Assembly: GCF_000189295.2 (NCBI RefSeq)
Contig: NC_016803.1
Coordinates: 720,001 to 752,000 of the forward strand
Source of the DNA: Pseudodesulfovibrio mercurii
GTDB lineage: Bacteria > Desulfobacterota > Desulfovibrionia > Desulfovibrionales > Desulfovibrionaceae
Length of the DNA: 32,000 nucleotides
Reading direction: 5' to 3'
Positions 16,271-29,540 of this stretch are shown piece after piece (positions within the stretch are counted from its first letter, which is position 1; each line of letters opens with the position of its first letter). The translations under genes were made by a program, and so were the position numbers. The notes below the pieces were generated by a model. The model made no database searches, was not told the origin of the DNA, and saw nothing but the letters and a program-made list of their open reading frames with translations.

Positions 16271-16900
16271 CTAGGTTCCCGGGATGCGGCAGCAGACCTG
16301 GGCCTCGATGAAACCGGATATCCGCTTGCGGGCATCCGGTTCGTCGTTGTTGAAGCGCAGGACCGCGTAGTGGGCGTGGTTCCGCATGAAGGTCTTGACC
16401 ACGGTGCAGCCCACGCCGATGCCCTCCCCGGCCATGTCGAAGGGATGGAAGGTCAGGCGCACGCGCCCGCCCTTTTCCGCCGGGCAGCCGTCCGGGCCGT
16501 CGTCCACGAAACGAACGCGGGCGCAGCTGTCGGACATGTCCTCCAGAACCCCCCGGACGGCCCCCTTCCCGTTGGCCACGAAGGCCGGGAAGGTGCAGCA
16601 ACAGCGCGGTTCGCAACGCTCCTCGGCGTCGAAGACCCTCTGGGGGGCGGCCAGTTCGAACAGGGTGCCCGGCGTGTCCAGGGTTTGCAGGACGCGGGTG
16701 GTAAAGCCGAGCAGCCTGCCGTCGTAGGCGTAGCGGACCAAGGCGAAGGTGTCGGTGGCAAGGCGCTTGACGACCGCGTCGGGCACGTCGGCGAAGACCG
16801 TCAGGCGGCCGTCCTCGCCGAGCCCGGCGACCAGCCCGAGGAAGCGGTCCTCAAAGGTGGAAACCTCCAGAATGATGCTGTCTCCCACGGCGATGTCCAT
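16271..16900 (-). CDS. PilZ-domain protein (YcgR-like two-domain layout)
   Basis: RxxxR-like RCEPR and a D-x-S-x-x-G-like motif (EDMSDSCARV) in the C-terminal half. A GGAGG RBS precedes it. Confidence 0.65.
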   Translation of the reverse strand: MDIAVGDSIILEVSTFEDRFLGLVAGLGEDGRLTVFADVPDAVVKRLATDTFALVRYAYDGRLLGFTTRVLQTLDTPGTLFELAAPQRVFDAEERCEPRCCCTFPAFVANGKGAVRGVLEDMSDSCARVRFVDDGPDGCPAEKGGRVRLTFHPFDMAGEGIGVGCTVVKTFMRNHAHYAVLRFNNDEPDARKRISGFIEAQVCCRIPGT

Positions 16901-16966: not shown

Positions 16967-17254
16967 ATGCTCAAAACGCTCGGAATGATCGCCTGGATCG
17001 GATGCCTGATGACCCTGGCCTGGCAGGGCGCGGCCTGGGCCGTGACCGGGTCCTGGCCCTCCATAACCCTCATGACCGTGCTCGGCAAACTGCTCGGCAT
17101 GGACCTGCTGACCCTGGCCGGGAACCTCCCCCTGGACGTGGCCGCCAAGGCGGCATACGTGCTCGTGACCACGGAAGTGGCTGTTTTCCTGTGGTGGTCC
17201 GGAGTGGCCCTGTTTGGTCTGATGTTCGCCCTCGGCCTCCTTGGCCGAAAGTAA
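16967..17254 (+). CDS. Small hydrophobic membrane or secreted protein upstream of the rnf-associated cytochrome
   Basis: GC3-rich codons and a signal-like N-terminus (MLKTLGMIAWIGCLMTLAWQGAAWA) plus further TM helices. The start is uncertain among 16931, 16967 and 16985. Confidence 0.45.
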   Translation: MLKTLGMIAWIGCLMTLAWQGAAWAVTGSWPSITLMTVLGKLLGMDLLTLAGNLPLDVAAKAAYVLVTTEVAVFLWWSGVALFGLMFALGLLGRK

Positions 17255-17381
17255 ATTCTGCATAATCCCGATTCTTCCGGACGACGCTCGTCGTAACCCG
17301 AAAACCCCTTTAGGGTATGGACTAAACCCCACGGTTTCAGCTACAAGTTTGTATTCCGCTCTAACCCATGAGGTCGCTCCA

Positions 17382-18122
17382 TTGCAGAAACGGTATCTTC
17401 CCATCGCCATCGTGACCGGCATCCTCTTTCTTGTCGCCGCAGGCGGCTATCTGGCCCCTGCCGGCTCCGAGGGACCGCCCGTGCGCGTGCTCCTGGAGAA
17501 CAAGGGGGGCAAGGTCATCCTGAACCATGCGCAACACATCGGCGACATGGACGGCCGATGCGTCGACTGCCACCACACCTCGGACGCGGACCGGGATCCG
17601 GTCGCCTGCTCCACCTGCCACGTGGCCAAGTTCGACGAGAACTTCAAGGTCGCGCACCAGGACGCCATGGACGAAAAACAGTGCGGGGCCTGCCACCACG
17701 CCGGGGCGACCATCGCCAGGTTCAACCACGACGAGCACGCCGAGAACTACGCCTCCGGCGACTGCCTCTCCTGCCACCACGGCAAGGACATCGAGCCCGA
17801 ACCCCAGGCCTGCTCCAACTGCCACAAGGACGGAGCCGAATCCCGGCCGAGCCTGCGCGACGCGGCCCACGCCCGGTGCGCGGACTGCCACGACGACTTC
17901 TACAAGGAAGGGGCCGTGGGCTGCACCCGCTGCCACGAGCGCAAGGCCGAACCGGCCGACCAGACGGACTACCAGGCCTGCGCCGACTGCCACACCGGGA
18001 CCGTGGACAGGCTGATCCCCACCACCATGACGGCCTACCACGACCAGTGCCGGGGCTGCCACGAAAAGAACGGCAGCGGCCCGTTCAGCGACGACGCCTG
18101 CTACCAATGCCATATGAAATAA
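17382..18122 (+). CDS. Decaheme cytochrome c (rnf-associated)
   Basis: Ten CxxCH motifs: CVDCH, CSTCH, CGACH, CLSCH, CSNCH, CADCH, CTRCH, CADCH, CRGCH and CYQCH. An N-terminal anchor (QKRYLPIAIVTGILFLVAAGG) follows. I prefer the TTG at 17382 (GAGG 7 nt upstream); the track ORF's TTG at 17241 adds an AT-rich segment that looks non-coding. Confidence 0.85.
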   Translation: MQKRYLPIAIVTGILFLVAAGGYLAPAGSEGPPVRVLLENKGGKVILNHAQHIGDMDGRCVDCHHTSDADRDPVACSTCHVAKFDENFKVAHQDAMDEKQCGACHHAGATIARFNHDEHAENYASGDCLSCHHGKDIEPEPQACSNCHKDGAESRPSLRDAAHARCADCHDDFYKEGAVGCTRCHERKAEPADQTDYQACADCHTGTVDRLIPTTMTAYHDQCRGCHEKNGSGPFSDDACYQCHMK

Positions 18123-18136
18123 GGGACCGAAGCACC

Positions 18137-19342
18137 ATGAGCGATTTCAACTTCAGCCTGCTGTGCGGCGAGACCGGGCCTTTGACCACGGCCTCCCGGC
18201 CCGACATGCTGCGCCTTCCCATGGAGGGCATGACCCCGGTCCTGGCCGTGGGCGAGCAGGTCCTGGCGGGCGCCAGGGTGGCCGTAGGCAACGGCCCGGA
18301 CAAGGGCGACCTGCACGCCCCCCTGGCCGGAACCATCCTTGAACTGGAGCCCCACTCCATGCTCATCGAGGCGGACGCCGGGGGCAGGACCGAACCCGTC
18401 TCCCCCTGCGCCGAGGGCGGCGAGCCGCTCAGGCGTTGGCTCAAATCCATGGGCGTGGACGTGGGCCTGATGTACAAGGCCCCCACCCTGATCATCAACG
18501 CGGTTCCGCCCGAGCCCGGCATCTCGGTCTACGAGCCCCTGCTGCGCGACTACCGCAAGACCCTGCAACTGGGCCTGGACACGGTCCAGAAGGTCGTCGA
18601 GCCGGGCAGGATGTTTCTGGTGGCGGCCAAGGGCAACCAATCCACGGCCTTTGCCAACTGCACCGTGGTCCACGTCACCCCGGTCTACCCCAACGGGCTC
18701 GACCCCCTGGTCTTCAAGGCGGTCCTCAAGGAGGAGGTCCTGCCCGGCTCCCGGCCGGACAAGGCCACCATCCTGTCGGTCAAGGACCTGTACGCCGTGG
18801 GCCGGGTCATGGAGACGGGCCGTCCCGTGACCGAGACGCCCATGACCATCGGCGGGCAAAACCTGCTGGTCCGCGTGGGCACGCCCGTGGGCTTCCTGGC
18901 CGTCGAGGCCGGGGCCCGGCTCCAGCCCGGCGACCGCGCCGTCCTGGGCGGCCCCCTGCGCGGCCTGGCCGCGGTCAACCTGGAACAGGGCGTGGACAAG
19001 GACACCAGCGGCCTGACCCTCATGCGCCAAGACGCCAGCCTCGAGACCACGGACAACTTCTGCCTGGGTTGCGGGGCATGCGAGCGCCACTGTCCGGCCC
19101 GGATCATGCCCGGCATGATCAGCCGATGCGCCGAATTCAAGCAGTTCCAGCGGGCCGAGGCCTACCACATCCACTCCTGCATGGAGTGCGGCCTGTGCGG
19201 CTACTGGTGCACGGCAAGGCGCCCGCTGCTGCAATACATCCGCCTGGCCAAGTACGAGCTGGCCCTGCTGGCCGGCGCCCACGCCCCGACCGGGCCCACG
19301 GACGAAGAACTCAAGGAGCGGACAGGAGACTCGCAATGCTGA
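18137..19342 (+). CDS. rnfC: Rnf complex subunit C, short form lacking recognisable NADH/FMN-binding motifs
   Basis: RnfC_N-like segment (LHAPLAGTILELEP), SLBB-like region (VRVGTPVGFL...LGGPLRG), and two 4Fe-4S motifs (CLGCGACERHCP, CMECGLCGYWC). The ATG at 18137 lies just after the cytochrome stop. Confidence 0.85.
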   Translation: MSDFNFSLLCGETGPLTTASRPDMLRLPMEGMTPVLAVGEQVLAGARVAVGNGPDKGDLHAPLAGTILELEPHSMLIEADAGGRTEPVSPCAEGGEPLRRWLKSMGVDVGLMYKAPTLIINAVPPEPGISVYEPLLRDYRKTLQLGLDTVQKVVEPGRMFLVAAKGNQSTAFANCTVVHVTPVYPNGLDPLVFKAVLKEEVLPGSRPDKATILSVKDLYAVGRVMETGRPVTETPMTIGGQNLLVRVGTPVGFLAVEAGARLQPGDRAVLGGPLRGLAAVNLEQGVDKDTSGLTLMRQDASLETTDNFCLGCGACERHCPARIMPGMISRCAEFKQFQRAEAYHIHSCMECGLCGYWCTARRPLLQYIRLAKYELALLAGAHAPTGPTDEELKERTGDSQC

Positions 19343-20316
19343 AGCCGCTGAATCCCATCCTGACCGTGGCCGTCGCGCCCCACGTGCACTGCGGACGGAC
19401 CATCCGGCGCCACATGATCGACACCCTCGTCGCGCTCTTGCCCGCGGCCCTCATGGCCGTGGTCGTCTTCGGCATGGGGGCGCTCAGGGTCATGGCCCTG
19501 TCCTGCGCCGTGGCCGTGACCACCGAGGCCCTGCTCAACCGGATCATGAAACGCGAACAGTCCGTGGACGACTACAGCGCCCCGGTCACCGGCCTGCTCT
19601 TCGCCTTCCTGCTCCCGGCCTCAAGCCCGTGGTGGCTGGTGACCATCGGGTCGTCCGCCTCCATCACCCTGGGCAAGATGATTTTCGGCGGCCTGGGCGG
19701 CAGCCCGCTCTGCCCGCCCCTGGTAGGCTGGGCCATGTGCCGCATCTCCTGGGGGAGCTGGATGGACACCAACGCGACCATGCTCTCCTCCCAGCTGGCC
19801 GCGCCCCTGCAACAGCTCAAGTATTTCGGCGTGGAGTCCATCGCCTCCATCCACTACCAGGACCTGTTCCTGGGCAACCAGCTCGGCGGCCTGGGGGCCG
19901 TCCACGTGGGCGCCCTGCTGGTGGGCGCCGCCTACCTCCTGCTGCGTGGGCACATCTCCTGGGAGATCCCGGCCGGGTTCCTCGGCGGACTGCTGCTGAC
20001 GGCCTGGATCTACCGCTTCATGGACCCCGCGGCCTACGCCCCGCCCCTGTTCCACCTGCTGGCGGGCGGCGCGGTCTTCGGAGCCTTCTTCCTGGCCACG
20101 GACCCGTCGTCCAGCCCCATCGGCAGGCTGCCCGACGTGATCTTCGGGCTCATGGCCGGGGCCATGGTCATCGTCATCCGGGTGTACGGCACGTACCCCG
20201 ACGGCGTGCCTTTCGCCATCCTCCTGGCCAACCTGTTCACCCCGCTTCTGGACCGCATCCGGCCCCGCCCCTTCGGCGGCCCCTACTCCTTCCTAAACGG
20301 CAGGGAGGGCGCATAG
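19336..20316 (+). CDS. rnfD: Rnf complex subunit D
   Basis: Polytopic membrane protein with the NqrB/RnfD signatures GKMIFGGLGGSPLCPPLVGW, TNATML and FLATDPSSSP...YPDGVPFAILLANLFTPLLD. It overlaps the rnfC stop (ATGCTGA). Confidence 0.92.
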   Translation: MLKPLNPILTVAVAPHVHCGRTIRRHMIDTLVALLPAALMAVVVFGMGALRVMALSCAVAVTTEALLNRIMKREQSVDDYSAPVTGLLFAFLLPASSPWWLVTIGSSASITLGKMIFGGLGGSPLCPPLVGWAMCRISWGSWMDTNATMLSSQLAAPLQQLKYFGVESIASIHYQDLFLGNQLGGLGAVHVGALLVGAAYLLLRGHISWEIPAGFLGGLLLTAWIYRFMDPAAYAPPLFHLLAGGAVFGAFFLATDPSSSPIGRLPDVIFGLMAGAMVIVIRVYGTYPDGVPFAILLANLFTPLLDRIRPRPFGGPYSFLNGREGA

Positions 20317-20892
20317 ATGAAGGATATGATCAAGATGGTCCTGGTCCTGTCGCTCATCTGCGGGCTGTCCGGACTGACCCTGGCCTCGGTGCGCCACGCC
20401 ACCTCCGCGCGCATCGAGGAGCAGGTCATGACCTACGTGCAGGGCCCGGCCCTGAAGGACATCTTCTCGAACTACGACAACAACCCGATCAAGGACCGCA
20501 AGACCTTCGACCTGCCGACCGGGACAGTGACCGTGTTCCCGGCCATGAAGGACGGCAAGCTCCTGGGCGTGGCGCTGGAGACCTTCGGCAAGGGGTTCGG
20601 CGGCCCGGTGGGCATCATGGTCGGCTTCAACACCGACGGCAGCGAGTTGGTCGGCATCGGCACGACCACCCTCAAGGAGACGCCCGGCCTGGGCATGCGC
20701 CTGACCGAGCCGGACTACCGCGACCAGTTCCGGGGCCACAGCACCAAGTCCGTGGAGCTGACCAAGAACGGCGGCGACATCGCGGCCATCGCCGGGGCGA
20801 CCATCTCGTCCACGGGCAGCGTGGCCGCGGTCAACGAAGCGATCCGGATTTTCAACCAGATCAAGGACAAGATCCACGCCACGTGGTCCTGA
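20317..20892 (+). CDS. rnfG: Rnf complex subunit G (FMN-binding)
   Basis: N-terminal TM helix, ETPGLG, and the flavinylation-site context AIAGATISSTGS. Confidence 0.9.
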   Translation: MKDMIKMVLVLSLICGLSGLTLASVRHATSARIEEQVMTYVQGPALKDIFSNYDNNPIKDRKTFDLPTGTVTVFPAMKDGKLLGVALETFGKGFGGPVGIMVGFNTDGSELVGIGTTTLKETPGLGMRLTEPDYRDQFRGHSTKSVELTKNGGDIAAIAGATISSTGSVAAVNEAIRIFNQIKDKIHATWS

Positions 20893-20905: not shown

Positions 20906-21583
20906 ATGAGCACATTGTGGAAGGAATTCTCCAAGGGACTGTGGACGGACCTGCCGCCGTTCAAACTGGTCCTGGGGCTGTGCCCCACCCTGGCCGTGAC
21001 CAAGACGGCCTACAACGGCTTCGGTATGGGCGTGGCCGTCATCTTCGTCCTGGCCCTGTCCAACATGCTGGTCTCCATGCTCAGCCGGATCATCCCCTCC
21101 AAGGTGCGCATCGCCTGCTTCATCGTGGTGGCGGCCTCCCTGGTGGTCTGCGTCGAGCTGCTCATGCAGGCCTACGCCTACCCCCTGTACCAGCAGCTCG
21201 GCATCTTCGTGCCCCTCATCGTGGTCAACTGCATCATCCTGGGACGGGCCGAGGCCTTCGCCTCCAAGAACCCGGTGCTGCTGTCCATCGCCGACGGCCT
21301 GGGCATGGGGTTGGGCTACACCCTGTCGCTGACCTTCCTGGGCTCCCTGCGCGAGCTGTTCGGCTACGGGACCTGGTTCGGCATGCAGGTCATGGGCGGC
21401 TGGTTCAAACCCTTCGGCTTCATGGTCGAGGCGCCGGGCGCCTTTGTCTGCCTGGGCGTACTCCTGGCGGGGATGAACGCCCTGACCAATTGGCAACGGA
21501 AAACCAAGGGACTCGAGGCCATCCAGGGCCCGGTCCACGATTGTAAAACCTGCGGCATGTGTGCCAGCAAACCGAGGATGTAA
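20906..21583 (+). CDS. rnfE: Rnf complex subunit E
   Basis: LVLGLCPTLAVT...GIFVPLIVVNCIILGRAEAFA, which is the NqrD/RnfE pattern. The C-terminal tail ends HDCKTCGMCASKPRM. Confidence 0.93.
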   Translation: MSTLWKEFSKGLWTDLPPFKLVLGLCPTLAVTKTAYNGFGMGVAVIFVLALSNMLVSMLSRIIPSKVRIACFIVVAASLVVCVELLMQAYAYPLYQQLGIFVPLIVVNCIILGRAEAFASKNPVLLSIADGLGMGLGYTLSLTFLGSLRELFGYGTWFGMQVMGGWFKPFGFMVEAPGAFVCLGVLLAGMNALTNWQRKTKGLEAIQGPVHDCKTCGMCASKPRM

Positions 21584-21585
21584 TC

Positions 21586-22083
21586 ATGAAACGACTGCTC
21601 ATATTCCCCCTGCTCCTTCTGACCCTGGCCCTGTGCGCCTCCCCGGCCCTGGCCGAACGGCCCACCGACCAGAGCCTGATGACCATGTTCGAGGCCTCCG
21701 GAACCGTGGATACCGTGCAGACGATGATGGCCAAGCTCCTTGCCGTGGCCCAGATCCAGCTGAAAAAGAAGCTGCCCAACCTGCCGGAAGAGGCGGGCCA
21801 GATCATCAACGAGGAAATGCACAACGCCGTGCAGAAGACCATGAACGACGTGCTCGCCAAACAGACGGCCTACTACGCCGAGCGTCTGACCCAGCAGGAC
21901 GTGGACGACCTCATCGCCCTCTACGACACACCGGTCTGGAAGAAGCAGTTCGAGGTCACCCAGCAGTACGCCCGGGAGGAGTACGGCAAGATGCTGCGGG
22001 AGGACATCCCGAAAATGACCAACGACATGATGGCCCGCATCGCCACCCGCCTGAAGGAAGCCGGATACATCAAGGACAAGTAG
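21586..22083 (+). CDS. Secreted DUF2059-like protein encoded inside the rnf operon
   Basis: Sec signal MKRLLIFPLLLLTLALCASPALA and a DUF2059-like segment (LTQQDVDDLIALYDTPVWKKQFEV). The ATG at 21586 follows the rnfE stop by 2 nt. Confidence 0.65.
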   Translation: MKRLLIFPLLLLTLALCASPALAERPTDQSLMTMFEASGTVDTVQTMMAKLLAVAQIQLKKKLPNLPEEAGQIINEEMHNAVQKTMNDVLAKQTAYYAERLTQQDVDDLIALYDTPVWKKQFEVTQQYAREEYGKMLREDIPKMTNDMMARIATRLKEAGYIKDK

Positions 22084-22084
22084 C

Positions 22085-22660
22085 ATGGATTACTTCGTAC
22101 TCGTCATCGCCGCCATCTTCGTCAACAACATCGTGTTGGCGCAGTACCTGGGCAACTGCCCGTTCATCGGCACGTCCAAGAACTCGGGCGTGGCCATGGG
22201 CATGGGCATGGCCGTGGTCTTCGTGGCCACCATGGCCGCGGTCATCACCTGGTGCGTCCAGAAATTCCTGCTCACGCCCAACGACCTGGACTATCTCCAG
22301 ACCATCGCCTTCATCCTGGTCATCGCCGCCCTGGTCCAGTTCGTGGAGATGTTCCTGAAAAAGGCCGTGCCGCCGCTGTACAAGTCGCTCGGCATCTTCC
22401 TGCCGCTGATCACGACCAACTGCGCGGTGCTCGGCATCGCCATCATCTGCCAGCGCGAGGAATACTCCCTGCTCGAGACCCTGATCTTCTCGGTGGCCTC
22501 GGGCGCGGGCTTCCTCCTCGCCCTGGTCCTGCTGGCGGGCATCCGCGAGCGGCTGGACCTGTCCAGGGTGCCCATGGCCATGCGCGGCACCCCGCTGGCC
22601 CTGATCATGGCGGGCCTCATGTCGCTGGCCTTCTTCGCCTTCAAGGGCATGGCCTCCTAG
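22085..22660 (+). CDS. rnfA: Rnf complex subunit A
   Basis: FVNNIVLAQYLGNCPFIG...GIFLPLITTNCAVLG, which is the NqrE/RnfA pattern. The product is 191 aa. Confidence 0.95.
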   Translation: MDYFVLVIAAIFVNNIVLAQYLGNCPFIGTSKNSGVAMGMGMAVVFVATMAAVITWCVQKFLLTPNDLDYLQTIAFILVIAALVQFVEMFLKKAVPPLYKSLGIFLPLITTNCAVLGIAIICQREEYSLLETLIFSVASGAGFLLALVLLAGIRERLDLSRVPMAMRGTPLALIMAGLMSLAFFAFKGMAS

Positions 22661-22672
22661 GAGTTTGACGCT

Positions 22673-24775
22673 ATGATCACCGCTTCCGTACTGATCCTGC
22701 TCGGCATCGGCTTCACGTCCGCCGTCATCCTGGCCGTGGCCTCCAAGCTGCTCTACGTCTACGAGGACCCGCGCATCGCCCAGGTGGAAGGGGTGCTGGC
22801 CGGGGCCAACTGTGGCGGGTGCGGTTTCCCCGGCTGCTCCGGTGCGGCCCAGGGCGTGGTCGAGGGCAAGGCCGGGGCCACGGTCTGCGTCATCGGCGGC
22901 GACGCCGTGGCCGCCAAGGTGGCCGCCATCATGGGGCTGGAATTTTCCTCCATGGAAAAGCAGATCGCCTTTGTGGACTGCACCGGCGGCGTGCGCGCCG
23001 AGGAGGTCTACCGCTACGCCGGGGTCAAGGACTGCCGCGCCCAGCACATGCTCTACTCCGGCTCCAAGATGTGCCCCGAGGGATGCCTCGGCTTCGGCAC
23101 CTGCGTCACGGCCTGCCAGTTCGGGGCCATCGAGATGGGCCCCAACGGCTATCCCGTGGTGGACCCCAACCTGTGCACGGCCTGCGGCGGCTGCGCCCAG
23201 GTCTGCCCGCGCGGCGTGATCACCATCTGGGGCATGACCGCGCGCATCACCCACCTGAACCTGGAGACCGACTGCCTGGCCCCGTGCCGCCAGCGCTGTC
23301 CGGGACAGATCAACATCCCCCGGTACATCGAACAGGTCTCGCACGGCGACTACGCCGGGGCGCTGGAGACCATCCGCGAGCGCATCCCCATGCCCCTGTC
23401 CATCGGCCGGGTCTGCCCCCACCCCTGCGAGGGTGTCTGCCGCCGCGGCAACGTGGACGAGCCTGTGGGCATCAACATGATCAAGCGGTTCGCGGCGGAC
23501 TGGGAGATGAACTCCGGCGTCCGCCTGCCCATCACCTGCGCCCCGGACACCGGACGCAAGGTGGCCGTGGTCGGCGGCGGCCCGGCCGGGTTGTCCTGCG
23601 CCTTTTTCCTGCGCCGCCTGGGCCACCGCCCGACCATCTTCGAGTCCATGCCCAAGCTCGGCGGCCAGCTGCGCTACGGCATCCCGGAATACCGGCTGCC
23701 CAAGGCCGTGCTCGACTGGGAGATCCAGGGCATCCTGGACCTGGGCATCGACGTCAGATACGGGCAGTTCTTCGGCAAGGACTTTTCCCTGAACACCCTG
23801 CATGAGGACGGCTTCGAGGCCGTGTTCCTGGGCATCGGCGCGTGGATGAACCTGAACCTGCGCATCGACAACGAGGACGCCGAGGGCGTATCCACGGGCA
23901 CCGAGTTCCTGACCAAGGTGGGCCTGGGCATCGACACCGGCACGGGCCGGAAGGTCGTGGTCGTGGGCGGCGGCAACACCGCCATCGACGCGGCCCGGAC
24001 GAGCCTGCGCCTGGGCGCGGACGTGACCCTCATGTACCGCCGCACCCGGGACGAGATGCCCGCCAACATGGAGGAGATCGTCGGGGCCGAGGAGGAAGGC
24101 GTCAAATACCTCTTCCTGGCCGCACCCACGCGCATCGTCAAGGACGACGCGGGCCACGTGACCCACATCGAATACATCAAGATGGAGCTCGGCGAGCCCG
24201 ACCAGTCCGGCCGCCGCCGTCCCGTGCCCATCGAGGGGTCCGAGACCCTGATCGAGGCGGACACCGTGTACACGGCCATCGGCCAGAAGCCCGAACTCTC
24301 CTGCCTGTACGAAAACGGCGTCTGCCAGCTGGAGGAGACGCGCTGGCGCACCCTGGCCGCCGATTCCGACACCCTGCGCACGGCCATGCCCAACGTCTTC
24401 ACCGGCGGCGACATGCACACCGGCCCGGCCCTGGTCATCACCGCCCTGGGCGAAGGCCGCAAGGCGGCGCGGTCCATCCACCAGTACCTCAACGGCGAGA
24501 CGCCCCACGTGGACGCCCGCACCCAGCGCGACCTGCTGCCCTACACCATGTTCACCGACGTGCCGGACGTGGGCTTCCGCGAGCGGTCCAAGATGCCCCA
24601 CCTGGTGGAGTGCGACGAACGCGCCTGCACCTTCGACGAGATCGAGGGCGCCCTGAGCGAGGCCCAGGCCAAGCACGAGACCTGCCGCTGCCTGCGTTGC
24701 GGCCTGACCTGCTACAACCGGGACATGATCGACGGCCAGACCTGCACCAGCGGGGACTGTGTTAAAAATCAGTAA
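22673..24775 (+). CDS. rnfB: RnfB fused to a GltD/NfnB-like NAD(P)H-dependent FAD/Fe-S oxidoreductase module (700 aa)
   Basis: The N-terminus matches RnfB: TM helix, CGGCGFPGC cluster site and ferredoxin motif CTACGGCAQVCP. From about nt 23270 it becomes GltD-type: Fe-S region (CLAPCRQRCPGQINIP...GRVCPHPCEGVC), FAD motif VAVVGGGPAGLS, NAD(P)H motif VVVVGGGNTAIDAA and VFTGGD. A Cys-containing tail (ETCRCLRCGLTC) follows. Confidence 0.85.
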   Translation: MITASVLILLGIGFTSAVILAVASKLLYVYEDPRIAQVEGVLAGANCGGCGFPGCSGAAQGVVEGKAGATVCVIGGDAVAAKVAAIMGLEFSSMEKQIAFVDCTGGVRAEEVYRYAGVKDCRAQHMLYSGSKMCPEGCLGFGTCVTACQFGAIEMGPNGYPVVDPNLCTACGGCAQVCPRGVITIWGMTARITHLNLETDCLAPCRQRCPGQINIPRYIEQVSHGDYAGALETIRERIPMPLSIGRVCPHPCEGVCRRGNVDEPVGINMIKRFAADWEMNSGVRLPITCAPDTGRKVAVVGGGPAGLSCAFFLRRLGHRPTIFESMPKLGGQLRYGIPEYRLPKAVLDWEIQGILDLGIDVRYGQFFGKDFSLNTLHEDGFEAVFLGIGAWMNLNLRIDNEDAEGVSTGTEFLTKVGLGIDTGTGRKVVVVGGGNTAIDAARTSLRLGADVTLMYRRTRDEMPANMEEIVGAEEEGVKYLFLAAPTRIVKDDAGHVTHIEYIKMELGEPDQSGRRRPVPIEGSETLIEADTVYTAIGQKPELSCLYENGVCQLEETRWRTLAADSDTLRTAMPNVFTGGDMHTGPALVITALGEGRKAARSIHQYLNGETPHVDARTQRDLLPYTMFTDVPDVGFRERSKMPHLVECDERACTFDEIEGALSEAQAKHETCRCLRCGLTCYNRDMIDGQTCTSGDCVKNQ

Positions 24776-24852: not shown

Positions 24853-24929
24853 GGGCGATTAACTCAGCTGGTCAGAGTGCCATCTTCACACGGTGGAAGT
24901 CACAGGTTCAAATCCCGTATCGCCCACCA
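24853..24929 (+). tRNA. tRNA-Val (anticodon CAC), CCA encoded
   Basis: Cloverleaf folded by hand. The acceptor stem GGGCGAT/ATCGCCC is perfect. D arm is ACTC/GAGT, anticodon stem is CCATC/GGTGG with loop TTCACAC, and the T arm is ACAGG-TTCAAAT-CCCGT with one A-C mismatch. It ends ACCA. Confidence 0.9.
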
Positions 24930-24943
24930 CTTTGACAGAAAAA

Positions 24944-24976
24944 ACGGACGGTTGTCGCAAGCGTCCGTTTTTTTTC
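24944..24976 (+). terminator. Rho-independent terminator after tRNA-Val
   Basis: ACGGACG-gttgtcgcaag-CGTCCGT followed by T8. An A-run upstream may let it also act on the convergent - strand gene. Confidence 0.8.
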
Positions 24977-24992
24977 GCGTGAGCCTGGGCGC

Positions 24993-25355
24993 TCAGGCCA
25001 CGATCCATTCCAGGGCCTGATCGAGCTTTTCCGGCGGATAGAGCTTGACCTCGCAGTCCATGAGCAGTTCGCCCAGGCGGACGCCCCAGCGGACCCAGTC
25101 CGGACCGCCGACTACGGCCAGCCTGCGGAAATCCTTGCGGTGGGCCAGGCCGAACTTGGCGTCGTCCCACATGGCCTTGAACTCCCACCCCTTGAAGTCC
25201 GCGTCCATGAACAGCAGGGCGTCGGCCTTGCCGCCATCCCCAATGGCCTTTTCCAGGGCCGGAATCCAAACGTCCCTGTAGTCCGCGTCCGTCAGCTTGT
25301 CCGTGGCCCTGACCGCGACCATGGTCGGCGTGGATTGTTCCATAACGGTGATCAT
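24993..25355 (-). CDS. SpoIIAA-like/STAS-fold protein (DUF3478-type)
   Basis: VRATDKLTDADYRD...LLFMDADFKGWEFKAMWDDAKFGLAHRKDFRRLAVVGGPDW. The ATG at 25355 has an AAGGAGGA RBS 5 nt upstream. Confidence 0.7.
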   Translation of the reverse strand: MITVMEQSTPTMVAVRATDKLTDADYRDVWIPALEKAIGDGGKADALLFMDADFKGWEFKAMWDDAKFGLAHRKDFRRLAVVGGPDWVRWGVRLGELLMDCEVKLYPPEKLDQALEWIVA

Positions 25356-25430
25356 GCGAATCCTCCTTGTTCGGATACGACGATTCAGGGGGAACATACC
25401 CCATTTGCGGAGTTTTGGGAATGTCCGGGG

Positions 25431-27707
25431 CTAGCGGCCGAGGTGCCGGAGCAGTTCCGTTGCGGCCGTATCGCCGGGCGAGCGCTCCAGGATGCGCAGG
25501 GCCAGGTCGCGGGCCTTGTCCGGCCTGCCCGAGGCCAGGTAGAAATTGGCCAGGGCCACGAAATAGGCCTGGTTGTGCGGTGCGGCATCGAGCGCCCTCT
25601 TCATGGCCGCCTCGGCCTCGACCGGCCGCTTCAGGGCGAGCAGGACCTGGCCGTAGTTGTACTGGGCGCGCGCGTTTTCCGGCAGGTGCTCGGCGGCCCG
25701 GCCCAGGTAGGTCTCGGCGTCCGTGTAGCGCCCCATCTCGGCCAGGAGCAGCCCCAGGGAATAGGCCACTTCATACAGGTCCGGGCGCTGCACCGTGACC
25801 TCGCGCAGGAGCCGTTCGGCCCGGACGTTGTCGCCCTGCCGGTTGTAGAGCATGGCCAGGTTGACCTTGGCCGGATAGAAATGGTCGTCGATGGCGATGG
25901 CCTTGCGGTAGTCGCGCTCGGCCGCCGGGTCGTCGCCCCGGTTGACCGCCAGGTTGCCCAGGTTGTAGCGCTGGGCCGCGAAGTCGGCGTTGTAGCGCAG
26001 GCTCTGCCGATAGTCCTCGAGGTCCGCGCGGAAGGCTTCGCGGTCCGCCTCGCGCAGGTCGGACTCGGGCAGGGAGCTGAGCAGGGCCGCGGCCTCCATG
26101 CGCACGCCCTTGACCGGGTCGTACAGCTTGGGCGCGATGCGCCTGAGCCGGGTCTCGGCGTCGAAATAGGCCAGGCTGCGGATGGCGGTGTAGCGGATCA
26201 GGGCATCCGCGTCCTCCAGCCCACGAGCCAGGGCCGCGCGGCTCGCCTCCGAGGGGTAGTCGCGCAGCAGCTCCAGGGCCGTGGCCCGGACGATGGACGG
26301 CGACAGACCGTCCCCGGCCAGCCGGATGAGCTCCCCTTCGGCCTCGGGCCGGCCGGCCCGCCCCGCCGCGATGACCGTGCCGTAGTGCGGCTTGCGCTTC
26401 TCGCCGTACCACTTGGTCACGGCCTGGACGTTCCACGCCAGGGACTTGTCGTCGTGGCACCCCTTGGCCGAGCAGGCGTTGGGCGTGCCCAGGGTCACAC
26501 TCAGGTCCGGGCGCGGCACGCGCAGGCTGTGGTCGGCCCGCCGGTCGATGCCCATGTAGGTGCGCTCGGGCATGTGACAGCGGATGCACAGGTACCCTTC
26601 GCTCGGCTTGCCCTTGTCCTCCCTCTTGTGAAAATGGTGGCCCGGCGTGTCGTAGACCTCGGCCCGGTGGCACTGGGTGCACAGGTCGTTGCCCTCCTTG
26701 TGCCGCTTGAGGCCGTGCACGTCGTGGCAGTCGCCGCAGCGCACCCCGCGCGCGTACATCTTGCTCTGGACGAAGGAGCCGTAAACGTAGTCCTCGGCCT
26801 CGATCTGGCCGTCCGGGAAATACATGTCCCGGCCGAGAAGCTGCGGGACCATCAGGTCCAGAAGCTCGCCCTCCCCGTGCGAGTTGTCGCCCAGCTGGAA
26901 ACGCCGCGCATGGCACGGGGCGCAGATGCGGACCTGTTCCTCGTTGCCGATGCCCGAGGTGCACACGGTCAGGGCGTAGTTCGGGACATCGGCCCGGGCC
27001 AGGGGCGGCAGGTCGGCCCAGGCCACGTGTCTGGAGCCCGGCCCGTGGCAGGCCTCGCAGCCCACGTCGATCTCGGCCCAGGTGGTGTGGTAGGCGTCGG
27101 CCTCGGGGTCGTACCCCTTGCGCACGCGGGTGGAGTGGCACTCCGCGCACATGACGTTCCAGGTCTGGCCGCCGTTGGTCCAGTGAAGCCAGTCGCCGGG
27201 CCCCTGCACGTCGTAGGGCGGGAGCCGGTACCAGGCCCTGCGCTCCACGTCCCAGGCGATGTTCAGGCATTGCAGCCTGCCGCCGGGGAACGGGACCAGA
27301 TACTGTTGCAGGGGATAGACCCCGAAGGTGTAGGTGACCTCGAACTGGCCGGGCTTGCCGTCCGGTCCCTCGGTCTCGACGAAGAACCGTTTGTCGCGGC
27401 GGTAGAAACGCGAGACCACGCCGGAGTGGGGATCGGTGTAGGTCACGTTGTTGAAGTCGCCGAGCACCGTGTCCTCGGCGGCCGGTTCCATGGCCCGGTC
27501 GTGGTCGGAGCCACGCCACTTGTCGTAGGCCGCCTTGTGACATCGGGCGCAGGCCTCGGAGCCCACGAACCGGGCGGGTTCCTCCTGGGGGACGCCGGTG
27601 CGGGGCGGATGGAGATACAGGGCCGCCGCAGGAGAAAGCAGGATGAGCACGGCCGCGACCAGCGCGATGCGCTCCCAAACGGCCGATTCGTGAAATGGCG
27701 TGCTCAT
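25431..27707 (-). CDS. Membrane-anchored multiheme (about 8 hemes) cytochrome c with a C-terminal HEAT/TPR repeat domain
   Basis: Seven CxxCH motifs (CARCH, CAECH, CEACH, CAPCH, CGDCH, CTQCH, CIRCH) plus one CxxxxCH (CSAKGCH), with an N-terminal TM anchor. The last 290 aa or so (nt 25434-26300) are HEAT/TPR-like repeats. Confidence 0.85.
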   Translation of the reverse strand: MSTPFHESAVWERIALVAAVLILLSPAAALYLHPPRTGVPQEEPARFVGSEACARCHKAAYDKWRGSDHDRAMEPAAEDTVLGDFNNVTYTDPHSGVVSRFYRRDKRFFVETEGPDGKPGQFEVTYTFGVYPLQQYLVPFPGGRLQCLNIAWDVERRAWYRLPPYDVQGPGDWLHWTNGGQTWNVMCAECHSTRVRKGYDPEADAYHTTWAEIDVGCEACHGPGSRHVAWADLPPLARADVPNYALTVCTSGIGNEEQVRICAPCHARRFQLGDNSHGEGELLDLMVPQLLGRDMYFPDGQIEAEDYVYGSFVQSKMYARGVRCGDCHDVHGLKRHKEGNDLCTQCHRAEVYDTPGHHFHKREDKGKPSEGYLCIRCHMPERTYMGIDRRADHSLRVPRPDLSVTLGTPNACSAKGCHDDKSLAWNVQAVTKWYGEKRKPHYGTVIAAGRAGRPEAEGELIRLAGDGLSPSIVRATALELLRDYPSEASRAALARGLEDADALIRYTAIRSLAYFDAETRLRRIAPKLYDPVKGVRMEAAALLSSLPESDLREADREAFRADLEDYRQSLRYNADFAAQRYNLGNLAVNRGDDPAAERDYRKAIAIDDHFYPAKVNLAMLYNRQGDNVRAERLLREVTVQRPDLYEVAYSLGLLLAEMGRYTDAETYLGRAAEHLPENARAQYNYGQVLLALKRPVEAEAAMKRALDAAPHNQAYFVALANFYLASGRPDKARDLALRILERSPGDTAATELLRHLGR

Positions 27708-27726
27708 GGCGTTCCCCGTTCCCGTC

Positions 27727-28236
27727 CTAGAGCCGCACGGCCTGTTCCGCCCGGAAGCGGTCCCGGCGGCGGGGTGTGGCGCAGTCGACCTTGACCACGC
27801 CGTCCTCGATGCGCACGGCGAAGGTGTCCAGGGGCCGGGGCGCGGGGCCGGTCAGGACCTCGCCGGTCAGGCTGAAGGAGGAGCCGTGACAGGGGCAGAC
27901 GAACAGGTGCTTGTCCTCGTCCCAGGGCACGGAACAGCCCAGGTGGGTGCAGGTCCGCGACAGGGCCAGGAACCCGCCGTCCGCCAGACGGGCCAGGTAG
28001 AACCGCCCCTGGGGCACGGGCGTGACCGTGCCGGGCTTGAACGAGGCGGCCTCGCCCACGGTGACGATGCGCTCCGCCGCTTCGGGCCGGTCGCGGTCCC
28101 GACGGGCGCCCAGGAAGGACACGCCGAGCCAGGCGAATTCGGCCAGGCCGGCCAGGCCGAGAAATATCCAGAGCCGGTTGAGGAAGGTCCGGCGGGTCGT
28201 CAGTCCCGCGCCGTTCTTTTGCTCCCACTTGCTCAC
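27727..28236 (-). CDS. Rieske [2Fe-2S] protein with a Tat signal
   Basis: CTHLGC...CPCHGS cluster motifs and the twin-arginine motif TRRTFLNRL. The GTG at 28236 (GGGAGGG RBS) overlaps the cytochrome b stop as GTGA. Confidence 0.9.
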   Translation of the reverse strand: MSKWEQKNGAGLTTRRTFLNRLWIFLGLAGLAEFAWLGVSFLGARRDRDRPEAAERIVTVGEAASFKPGTVTPVPQGRFYLARLADGGFLALSRTCTHLGCSVPWDEDKHLFVCPCHGSSFSLTGEVLTGPAPRPLDTFAVRIEDGVVKVDCATPRRRDRFRAEQAVRL

Positions 28237-29540
28237 GACAACCCTCCCGCTGCGGCCGCCCCCTGCGCCCAGGGCGCGACCAGATGCATCTCCGCGCCCC
28301 GGAACCAGACGCCGACCACGGTCAGGGCGGCCAGGGCGGCGAAGCCCAGGACCAGCCCGGCCATGACCGCCTCGGCCCGGGTGCAGCCAAGGACCCTGAC
28401 CACCAGCCAGTACGCCCCGGCGGCCAGAACAAGCACGGCTGCCGTGGGGACCATCCCGCGCGTGACCAGGGTGTCCGTAAGCGGCGCGCCCGCCTGCGCA
28501 AGCGCGTTGTCCGCCAGGACCACGGCCAGGGCCAGACCAGCGCCCGTCAGGGCGGCGGCCAGGGCCAGCTCGCGCCCGCGCTCCGAGCCGAACCAGACCC
28601 CGCCGGGCAGAGCGCTGTCCGGCAGAAAGGGAACGAGCAGGAGCGTCACACCGGCCAAAAGCGGCCAGACAAAGACCGCGAACAAGGGATGGAGGTGCAG
28701 GAGCAACTCCTGGAACCCCTGGAAGTACCACGGGGCCTTGGTCGGGTTGGGGCTCATGCCCGGATTGGCCTGGGCCAGGAGCGGCGCGTTCCAGACCAGG
28801 GCCAGGAGCAGGACCAGGGCGATGAGGCCGAGCCCCACGGCGGCCTCGCGGGCCACCAGGTCCGGGACCACCGGCACGCGGCGCACGGGCTGGTCCCCTT
28901 CGGGCGCGCCGATGAGCCCGTGGGCCTTGCGCACCAGCCAGAAGTGCCAGACCAGCAGGACCAGCAGGCAGCCGGGAATGACGGCCACATGCAGGACGTG
29001 GAAGTTGGCCAGGGTGGCCGGGCCGATCTCCGCCCCGCCCCGGAAGAAAGTGCGCAGCCAGTCGCCGCACAGGGGGATGTAGCCGAGCATGGCCGTGGAG
29101 ATGGTCACGGCCCAGTAGGCCAGCTGGTCCCAGGGCAGCAGGTAGCCGGTGAAGTTGGCGGCCAGGACGAGGAAGAGCAGAAACAGGCCGATGACCCAGT
29201 TCAGGCGGCGGCCCGGCCCGAAGGCCCCGGTCAGGACCACGCGCAGCAGGTGGAGCACGGCCACGACCACCAGCAGGTTGGCCCCGGCGTGGTGGATGTT
29301 GCGCACCCAGTAGCCCAGGGGGACCTCGCGGCCCAGGGTCTGGACCGAGGCGTAGGCCCCGCCCGGGGTCGGCTCATAGGCCAGGAGCAGGAGTACGCCG
29401 GTCAGGAAGAGCAGCCCGATCAGGGTCACGGCCATGCCGCCCAATCCAAAGCTCAGGGAGAACCGGATCGTGGACAGCGGCACGGTGCGGGGGTGCAGAT
29501 GGAGGATGAGGTCGGTGATGGACTGTCTCGAGGGCCGCAT
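28233..29540 (-). CDS. Cytochrome b (fused b6-like and subunit-IV-like parts, with extra C-terminal TM helices)
   Basis: Helix-B His pair (IHHAGANLLVVVAVLH) and helix-D His pair with b6-type spacing (HVAVIPGCLLVLLVWH). It also has YLLPWDQ and a PEWY-equivalent APWYFQGFQELL. The product is 435 aa. Confidence 0.9.
   Translation of the reverse strand: MRPSRQSITDLILHLHPRTVPLSTIRFSLSFGLGGMAVTLIGLLFLTGVLLLLAYEPTPGGAYASVQTLGREVPLGYWVRNIHHAGANLLVVVAVLHLLRVVLTGAFGPGRRLNWVIGLFLLFLVLAANFTGYLLPWDQLAYWAVTISTAMLGYIPLCGDWLRTFFRGGAEIGPATLANFHVLHVAVIPGCLLVLLVWHFWLVRKAHGLIGAPEGDQPVRRVPVVPDLVAREAAVGLGLIALVLLLALVWNAPLLAQANPGMSPNPTKAPWYFQGFQELLLHLHPLFAVFVWPLLAGVTLLLVPFLPDSALPGGVWFGSERGRELALAAALTGAGLALAVVLADNALAQAGAPLTDTLVTRGMVPTAAVLVLAAGAYWLVVRVLGCTRAEAVMAGLVLGFAALAALTVVGVWFRGAEMHLVAPWAQGAAAAGGLS

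Follow-up and report, generated by a model that had tools for sequence, protein, structure and literature searches.

An RnfB subunit fused to a GltD-type NAD(P)H-flavoprotein module in the cytochrome-linked rnf operon of Pseudodesulfovibrio mercurii

How sulfate reducers connect the NAD(P)H and ferredoxin pools of the cytoplasm with periplasmic cytochromes while conserving energy is a long-standing question, and the Rnf complex of Desulfovibrio is usually depicted as one that couples ferredoxin to NAD+. The subject of this work is an rnf operon of Pseudodesulfovibrio mercurii (formerly Desulfovibrio sp. ND132) in which the rnfB gene continues in frame into a GltD-type flavoprotein module. The operon lies in a stretch of 32,000 nucleotides (nt) of contig NC_016803.1 (positions 720,001 to 752,000, RefSeq assembly GCF_000189295.2), hereafter called the window; all coordinates refer to the window, and all genes of the operon are on the + strand. 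The rnfB::gltD fusion gene (22673..24775) is the last gene of the operon, is preceded by an AGGAG Shine-Dalgarno sequence 8 nt upstream, and consists of one 700-codon open reading frame (ORF) with zero internal stops, encoding a protein of 700 amino acids (aa).

The fusion protein is 100% identical to EGB13906.1 / WP_014321334.1 of P. mercurii, which sits on the 3.86-Mb genome sequence and is named "FAD-dependent oxidoreductase" by NCBI and "Ion-translocating oxidoreductase complex subunit B" by UniRef. Among the best 120 database clusters, 118 have lengths of 690-716 aa, at least 97% query coverage and 60-93% identity; the homologues come from Pseudodesulfovibrio, Maridesulfovibrio, Desulfocurvibacter africanus, D. 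inopinatus and Thermodesulfobacteriota, with many independent complete genomes and metagenomes represented, and more than 115 full-length fusions are present in the databases. Conservation was judged on an alignment of 37 homologues with identity down to 60%, in which the cofactor motifs and the junction between the two parts are invariant or almost so. For operon comparison, a set of 88 related loci was used, the unfused comparators being metagenomic Desulfovibrionaceae taken from a metagenome scan with RnfG alignment.

A missed stop or frameshift joining rnfB to a separate gltD-like gene, or a non-functional GltD part, is suggested by several database entries that are truncated or frameshifted fusions (P0242, P0245, P0252, P0263 and P0264) and by one (P0249) without the NAD(P)H domain. 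Against this explanation stand the open frame here and in the more than 115 independent full-length homologues (complete genomes included), the invariance of all cofactor motifs across the 37 sequences, and the conservation of the junction itself. We assign it a negligible probability, and an assembly artefact is effectively refuted by these comparisons. The entry P0249 is a 577-aa representative of the fused proteins that has lost the NAD(P)H Rossmann domain but kept the RCLRCG tail, the Fe-S motifs and the flavin adenine dinucleotide (FAD) domain; it may represent either a decaying copy or a natural variant that uses a different donor. An earlier note on this DNA, made from its letters and translated frames, had described one uninterrupted protein running from RnfB into a GltD/NfnB-type module with a boundary at about nt 23270, and had advised a search for a missed stop or frameshift at the junction and a profile search of the 700-aa product. 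That description is borne out by the frame, by the profiles (RnfB at the N-terminus, GltD type at the C-terminus) and by a boundary at about aa 195-200; the frame is open at the junction in the deposited protein and its full-length homologues as well, and every motif listed in the note was found in its place in the translation.

RnfB homology spans about aa 1-192 of the fusion protein. The RnfB part proper (aa 1-185, 22673..23227) comprises a transmembrane helix, the ferredoxin-like domain FdI, an RnfC-interface segment and the FdII dicluster, the domain names following the Clostridium tetanomorphum nomenclature of PMC9588780. The N-terminal membrane helix is formed by aa 2-26 in the AlphaFold2 (AF2) model. 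The FdI [4Fe-4S] site is made up of C47-GG-C50-GFPG-C55 and C72 (CxxCx4Cx16C; Pfam FeS PF04060, 2e-8, aa 42-73), the interface segment carries C103/C121, and the FdII dicluster contains C134/138/144/148 and C168/171/174/178 (C168-x2-C171-x2-C174-x3-C178-P; Fer4 dicluster match at aa 136-184); all of these cysteines are invariant in the 37 homologues. In the profile search, NCBIfam rnfB_Methano matched aa 2-185 at 1.3e-50, with the RnfB half below the curated NCBIfam cutoffs of TIGR01944 (65.4 vs 68.7), NF005503 (167.8 vs 252) and NF041836 (172 vs 445). Residues 11-189 of Acetobacterium woodii RnfB (9ERI_B, 2.8e-48) and residues 8-195 of C. tetanomorphum RnfB (7ZC6_B, 3.3e-43) align to this half, and the two solved chains together cover aa 6-192 of the fusion, where the RnfB homology ends and GltD follows.

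The distal ferredoxin modules (FdIII and beyond) and the linker Cys pair were not found in the fusion protein by alignment to the solved RnfB chains; the RnfB of unfused relatives does carry FdIII. In C. tetanomorphum, FdIII is part of a globular RnfB domain whose outermost cluster is thought to take electrons from ferredoxin (PMC9588780). The position of the canonical linker and FdIII domain is occupied here by the junction (aa 186-200, 23228..23272, WGMTARITHLNLETD), in which H194 and D200 are almost invariant.

The GltD-type module, with motifs for FAD, NADPH and two [4Fe-4S] clusters, takes up residues 198-681. Its Fe-S domain (Fer4_20, aa 201-282, 23273..23518; Pfam PF14691, 1e-20) contains C201/205/209 in the motif CLAPCRQRCP (aa 201-210), C248/252/256 in the motif RVCPHPCEGVC (aa 246-256) and the Lys ligand candidate K271, and these cysteines and K271 are invariant. 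The FAD and NAD(P)H Rossmann domains (aa 296-595, 23558..24457; Pfam Pyr_redox_2, 1.6e-31) contain the FAD motif VAVVGGGPAG (aa 296-306, nt 23558-23590, GGGPAG at 301-306) and the NAD(P)H motif VVVVGGGNTA (aa 427-437, nt 23951-23983, GGGNTA at 432-437), along with R341, Y455-R456-R457 and VFTGGD (aa 575-580), which are likewise invariant. The C-terminal segment of the domain (aa 610-681, 24500..24715) ends in E669-x2-R672-C673-x2-C676-G677-x2-C680, i.e., the Cys motif ETCRCLRCGLTC at aa 669-680, in which E669, R672, C673, C676, G677 and C680 are invariant.

In the profile search, PRK12771 matched aa 197-684 at 1.7e-148 and the gltA/GltD families matched at 1e-113 to 1e-71. Ranked by sequence, the closest relatives of known structure are 9BOV_A (1e-130), 9N5U_A and StnC (8OH5_C, 2e-117, residues 97-570), followed by NfnL (5JCA_L, 2e-94), GltD and DPD, and Foldseek with the AF2 model (predicted local distance difference test (pLDDT) 76, predicted template modelling score (pTM) 0.74) returned the relatives in the same order. 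The Cys tail aligns with StnC up to residue 570 (RCLECGC) and with 9bov_A up to residue 571, whereas the NfnL and canonical GltD alignments end at aa 609. K271 lies opposite StnC K170, where NfnL has Glu, and a Lys in place of Cys or Glu is the unusual ligand of the FAD-proximal [4Fe-4S] cluster in StnC (PMC10482914, PMC12018979). The N-terminal cluster motif is C-x3-C-x3-CP, versus the canonical RCxxC...C-x3-CP. By these three features (tail alignment, K271 and the C-x3-C-x3-CP motif), the GltD half is placed in the Stn/NfnABC sub-type. The C-terminal E..RCLxCG motif would then be the displaced counterpart of the canonical N-terminal EAxRCLxC motif, and the tail would accordingly belong to the two-cluster domain. 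A third cluster module or a sensor was considered for the Cys tail and ruled out, the whole segment aligning to StnC and NfnA; what had been taken at first for a further Cys-rich stretch of about 80 aa is instead an integral, conserved part of an StnC/NfnABC-type GltD domain. The FAD and NADPH motifs can be aligned position by position with those of the NADPH enzymes StnC, NfnA and NfnL, and NADPH is likely the preferred nucleotide because the GGGNTA...YRR signature is common to NADPH enzymes of the StnC/NfnA type.

This sub-type assignment bears on flavin-based bifurcation coupled to the membrane, in which the GltD FAD would split the electron pair of NADPH as NfnL does, sending one electron to Rnf and the cytochrome and the other to a low-potential acceptor (ferredoxin or the orphan clusters of RnfC). 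The fold is indeed homologous to that of bifurcating NfnL (5jca_L, 2e-94), R341 is the invariant equivalent of NfnL R201, and the Fe-S clusters of RnfC (see below) are kept with no obvious partner. The GltD half is nearer to the non-bifurcating StnC/NfnA type, however, having Lys where NfnL has Glu at the proximal cluster as well as the Stn-type C-terminal segment; the corresponding Arg of StnC and NfnA is present but too far from N5, and the FAD there has a single exit path (PMC10482914; PMC12018979). By cryo-electron microscopy and mutagenesis, the GltD domain of StnC and of NfnA in NfnABC is a non-bifurcating NADPH entry point whose FAD heads a single linear chain of clusters (PMC10482914; PMC12018979). 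Neither the window nor any of the related loci was found to contain an NfnS/NfnA-like [2Fe-2S]/FAD partner gene. The bifurcating input raised by the earlier note is thus disfavoured, and we regard it as very improbable.

The operon begins with a gene for a decahaem cytochrome c of the DhcA/CbcC-like type (17241..18122), which has ten CxxCH motifs and an N-terminal membrane segment, the start codon within the ORF being uncertain. The product matched Pfam Cytochrom_CIII (2.7e-20) and Cytochrome_C7, and NCBIfam TmcA/HmcA-like models. The gene ends 14 nt before rnfC, and a cytochrome homologue precedes rnfC in every related locus with the upstream region present. After rnfC come rnfD (19339..20316; Pfam NQR2_RnfD_RnfE, 1.7e-96; TIGR01946, 267 bits vs a cutoff of 207), rnfG of the Desulfovibrio DVU2794 type (20317..20892; NF045876 RnfG_DVU2794, 2e-89, 298 bits vs a cutoff of 205; flavin mononucleotide (FMN) attachment motif GATISS), rnfE (20906..21583; Pfam Rnf-Nqr, 5.3e-64; NF009070, 277 bits vs a cutoff of 184; candidate ligands Cys26 and Cys109) and rnfA (22085..22660; TIGR01943, 259 bits vs a cutoff of 229; candidate ligands Cys25 and Cys113). 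All four proteins of this membrane core, RnfD, RnfG, RnfE and RnfA, score above the curated cutoffs, with the flavin-attachment motif in RnfG and the Cys ligand motifs in RnfE and RnfA. RnfE ends in a conserved CxxCxxC (HDCKTCGMC, aa 213-219, ~21542-21562), found in fused and unfused cytochrome-linked operons. Between rnfE and rnfA is inserted an ORF of 165 aa with a signal peptide (21586..22083; Pfam DUF2059 1.8e-4, a weak match below the cutoff), which occurs only in the closest relatives (L001, L003, L010 and L015); in the other fused operons rnfE is followed directly by rnfA, and the insert is probably outside the core machine.

The same arrangement is found in all 26 fused loci, where the fusion gene closes a cytochrome c-rnfCDGEA-rnfB::gltD operon. 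The unfused group comprises 29 loci, most of them from human-gut Desulfovibrionaceae; the cytochrome and core are as in the fused loci, but RnfB is a polyferredoxin of 280-340 aa (FdI + FdII + FdIII), and its gene is followed by apbE/rnfF. This flavin transferase gene adjoins rnfB in every unfused operon extending past rnfB (L033-L083, L082 and L086), and none was found within the flanks of any fused locus. In a neighbour-joining tree of concatenated RnfD+G+E+A, which is crude, the fused operons form one clade and the gut-type unfused operons another, with the unfused environmental locus L086 near the base of the fused clade; the branching is consistent with essentially one fusion event. One fused operon, of a Thermodesulfobacteriota metagenome-assembled genome (L008, 9256-11038), has no rnfG called between rnfD and rnfE, either a gene-calling gap or a loss. 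Multiple copies also occur: three fusion paralogues (P0036, P0088 and P0109) are present in Pseudodesulfovibrio sp. JC047, and P. tunisiensis has two fused rnf operons. The second of these (L004, CP094380.1, 1629802-1649898) is flanked upstream by genes for fumarase, malic enzyme and a Na+/dicarboxylate symporter, and downstream by pta, ackA and pyruvate:ferredoxin oxidoreductase (por), a malic enzyme/fumarase/pta-ack-por neighbourhood that lends weak support to an NAD(P)H input.

A search with the RnfB domain as query returned, among the best 150 representatives of 50%-identity clusters, 6 full-length fusions of ~700 aa, at least 6 fusion fragments and ~135 ordinary RnfBs of 190-390 aa. The shorter hits P0245, P0252, P0263, P0264 and P0242 were considered as unfused RnfBs and rejected, being the truncated or frameshifted fusions mentioned above. 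Judged by this survey, the fusion architecture is a minority among RnfBs overall and the standard form in its own clade (Pseudodesulfovibrio, Maridesulfovibrio and relatives). The earlier note had suggested such a survey of RnfB architectures, done here on these 150 representatives and the 88 loci, and had allowed that the fusion might prove to be the common, already characterised form of its clade; it is indeed the common form, but it is uncharacterised, having received passing mentions only.

The rnfC gene (18137..19342) encodes 401 aa and keeps both C-terminal CxxCxxCxxxC motifs for two [4Fe-4S] clusters (C309-C319 and C348-C358, eight cluster Cys), and the protein has no NuoF-type FMN/NADH glycine loop. 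In canonical RnfC, a NuoF-like region embeds FMN and NAD+ binds in front of the FMN (PMC9588780). With TIGR01945, only model positions 154-431 were matched (the first 153 were unmatched) at 155 bits vs a cutoff of 246, and the Complex1_51K domain was not found in RnfC by Pfam search. Alignment to A. woodii RnfC (9ERI_C) showed that the segment GLGGATFPTHVKL... (GLGGATFPTHVKLAIPPDKK) is missing and that NGAECEPYLT is changed to NAVPPEPGIS. The canonical FMN/NADH motifs (GxGGxxFP loop and NGxECEP) were found in none of the 64 RnfC ORFs of related loci, 24 fused and 24 unfused included. A degeneration specific to fused operons, as would mark a moved site, was therefore rejected: the unfused loci L033-L083, L082 and L086 show the same deletion. 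On this alignment evidence, the loop loss is a trait of the whole cytochrome-linked Desulfovibrionaceae Rnf clade and not a consequence of the fusion; it would precede the fusion or be independent of it, because the unfused operons share the deletion.

Since RnfC has lost the FMN/NADH loop, the only recognisable pyridine-nucleotide site of the complex would be the single one on RnfB. The earlier note had left it open whether the NAD(P)H site was moved or duplicated; an RnfC without the loop favours relocation over duplication, but the loop loss is not specific to the fusion. No description of the degenerate Desulfovibrio RnfC was found in the literature searched. Attempts to detect ferredoxin:NAD+-coupled activity or ion transport in vesicles with the unfused D. 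alaskensis Rnf were unsuccessful (PMC4841214), and the loop loss casts doubt on the ferredoxin:NAD+ oxidoreductase function that is usually annotated for Desulfovibrio Rnf.

We propose, with slightly better than even confidence, that the fusion swaps the distal polyferredoxin (FdIII) for an NAD(P)H input, and that the complex is a reversible ion-coupled NAD(P)H:cytochrome c oxidoreductase. In favour of this reading, the RnfB part stops exactly where canonical RnfB enters FdIII, and the unfused relatives have FdIII plus apbE instead. The swap would take place at the input end of Rnf, the ferredoxin-docking FdIII giving way to an NADPH:FAD:2x[4Fe-4S] module of the type found in StnC and in NfnA of NfnABC. 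The electron path, for which cofactor occupancy, cytochrome partner, ion coupling and physiological direction are likewise predicted, may run as follows. A hydride from NAD(P)H would be transferred to the FAD of the GltD module, from which single electrons would pass through the two GltD clusters to the FdII and FdI clusters of RnfB. From FdI, the electrons would cross by the RnfA/E metal centre to the periplasmic FMN of RnfG, and RnfG would hand them to the operon's own decahaem cytochrome c and to the cytochrome network of the periplasm, with no return via RnfD/RnfC to NAD+. The enzyme could work in either direction, oxidising NAD(P)H for sulfate respiration or transferring electrons from cytochrome to NADP+. 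The Rnf of Methanosarcina acetivorans, co-transcribed with a cytochrome c, is unreactive with NAD(P), and its RnfG has been proposed to hand electrons to the cytochrome (PMC4023990). Of the couplings first suggested for this Rnf variant, NAD(P)H to periplasmic cytochrome c is the one we favour, with a decahaem cytochrome c gene heading the operon.

Several points weigh against this proposal. Only a small redox span separates NAD(P)H (about -320 mV) from c3-type haems, which makes any assigned pumping direction and stoichiometry tentative. The RnfC loop loss also occurs in unfused operons and is by itself no proof of site relocation, and RnfC keeps both [4Fe-4S] motifs, which makes a route via RnfD and RnfC to an unknown acceptor possible. 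The preference for NADPH over NADH is predicted from homology, the AF2 confidence is low in the C-terminal tail (pLDDT <50), and the members of the fusion family are known from sequence. Finally, FdII is kept, and ferredoxin docking is still possible.

The last point leads to a three-way junction, or tethered ferredoxin:NADP+ oxidoreductase, in which ferredoxin would dock on FdII and the GltD module would equilibrate it with NADP(H), the Rnf core and cytochrome serving as the ion-coupled third branch; in that case the fusion would bring in an extra substrate, and ferredoxin would not be replaced. Both FdI and FdII are kept with all Cys invariant, the unfused relatives are presumably ferredoxin users, and stand-alone NfnB-like proteins, even StnC, show some ferredoxin:NADP+ activity in vitro (PMC12221290). 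The StnC activity with ferredoxin was judged non-specific, however (PMC12221290), the domain that in C. tetanomorphum RnfB bears the outermost cluster, the one facing ferredoxin (FdII+III, cluster 6), is only partly present here with FdIII gone, and no ferredoxin gene was found within the operon in the loci examined. We consider such a junction unlikely, though less so than bifurcation, and retain the replacement of FdIII by an NAD(P)H input as the preferred reading.

Next to the operon, a gene for a PilZ-domain protein (16271-16900, - strand) lies divergently just upstream of the cytochrome gene, and a convergent bc-like gene set (25431-29540, - strand) lies beside the operon. On the - strand of this set, cytochrome b is encoded at 28233-29540, a Rieske protein at about 27727-28230 and, at 25431-27707, a multihaem cytochrome c of 758 aa that contains TPR repeats; an unassigned 172-aa ORF (24886-25404) is found in the same neighbourhood. 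The bc-like neighbourhood is not kept beside the fused rnf operons in L004-L008.

The RnfB-GltD fusion is real, widespread and uncharacterised, and its mechanistic implication is testable. No dedicated functional, structural or bioinformatic description of it was found in the literature searched; two papers mention the fused gene in passing, one of which misread the situation as "loss of rnfB". The alignment shows that rnfB is not lost in these strains, being present as the N-terminal 190 residues of the fused gene, and the published reading is corrected by this RnfB half. A large sub-clade (Pseudodesulfovibrio, Maridesulfovibrio, Desulfocurvibacter and others) carries an NADPH-flavoprotein on RnfB. 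More tentatively, and at somewhat less than even odds, the system may be an independent NQR-like re-invention within the Rnf family: a mostly marine sulfate-reducer lineage would have grafted an Stn-type NADPH dehydrogenase module onto the RnfB of a cytochrome-linked Rnf, the nucleotide site of RnfC having already been lost, and would have obtained an NAD(P)H:cytochrome c oxidoreductase that translocates Na+/H+. If so, the complex would be a respiratory NAD(P)H entry point in sulfate respiration or, in reverse, would use an ion gradient to make NADPH with electrons of periplasmic H2/formate; for the unfused Desulfovibrio Rnf, too, the activity would be ferredoxin:cytochrome c and not the ferredoxin:NAD+ activity usually assumed. 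The predictions are no NADH activity in the unfused form and NAD(P)H:cytochrome c activity in the fused form. The fusion would be the second independent case of input-module swapping in Rnf-type pumps, after NqrF of Na+-NQR.

Compared with the canonical ferredoxin:NAD+ Rnf, the membrane core of RnfD, G, E and A with its cofactor motifs is the same, while the NuoF-like FMN/NADH site of RnfC is absent. Canonical RnfB (A. woodii 9ERI_B and C. tetanomorphum 7ZC6_B) shares with the fusion the transmembrane anchor, the FdI CxxCx4Cx16C cluster, the interface Cys pair, the FdII dicluster and the gene position after rnfA; the fusion differs in being without the linker Cys pair, FdIII and later ferredoxin modules, with a 500-aa flavoprotein in their place. 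StnC (Sporomusa ovata StnABC, 8OH5) and NfnA (Bfu-type NfnABC, 9BOV and 9N5U) have ~40% identity over aa 198-681 and the same C-x3-C-x3-CP and CPxPCExxC motifs, Lys ligand, FAD/NADPH motifs and C-terminal E..RCLxCG. Their domain is located between a [2Fe-2S] domain and a NuoG/Fdh-like domain in a soluble bifurcating complex, whereas here it is placed behind FdII of a membrane-anchored RnfB, and StnC C114 is Ile in the fusion protein. NfnL/NfnB (P. furiosus 5JCA_L and T. maritima 4YLF_B) and GltD share the fold and the FAD/NADPH motifs (2e-94 to 2e-62; Foldseek); they differ in the Glu ligand of the proximal cluster (in NfnL; Lys here), in the EAxRCxxC helix, which is N-terminal there and whose probable counterpart is C-terminal here, and in their NfnS or GltB partner, for which there is no gene here.

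Among cytochrome-linked systems, the MmcA-Rnf of M. acetivorans and the Desulfovibrio DhcA-rnfCDGEAB-rnfF operon likewise have a multihaem cytochrome c gene upstream of rnfC, and the unfused Desulfovibrionaceae Rnf has the same degenerate RnfC, RnfG type and C-terminal CxxCxxC of RnfE. In both M. acetivorans and Desulfovibrio, RnfB is a polyferredoxin, with an adjacent apbE in Desulfovibrio; the Rnf of M. acetivorans is unreactive with NAD(P). The fused form has an additional NAD(P)H site and no adjacent apbE. Na+-NQR is a functional analogue only. NqrF is located near the RnfA/E-equivalent side like RnfB; NqrA, which is related to RnfC, has lost its cofactors (PMC9588780). Both systems would have a membrane-anchored Fe-S, flavin and NAD(P)H input subunit at the RnfA/E (NqrD/E) side together with an RnfC homologue without nucleotide function (NqrA, or the degenerate RnfC). 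The differences are that NqrF is built from a [2Fe-2S] ferredoxin and an FNR-like FAD/NADH domain unrelated to GltD, that NqrA has lost its Fe-S clusters too while RnfC here retains eight cluster Cys, and that the acceptor is ubiquinone in Na+-NQR and presumably a multihaem cytochrome in the fused Rnf.

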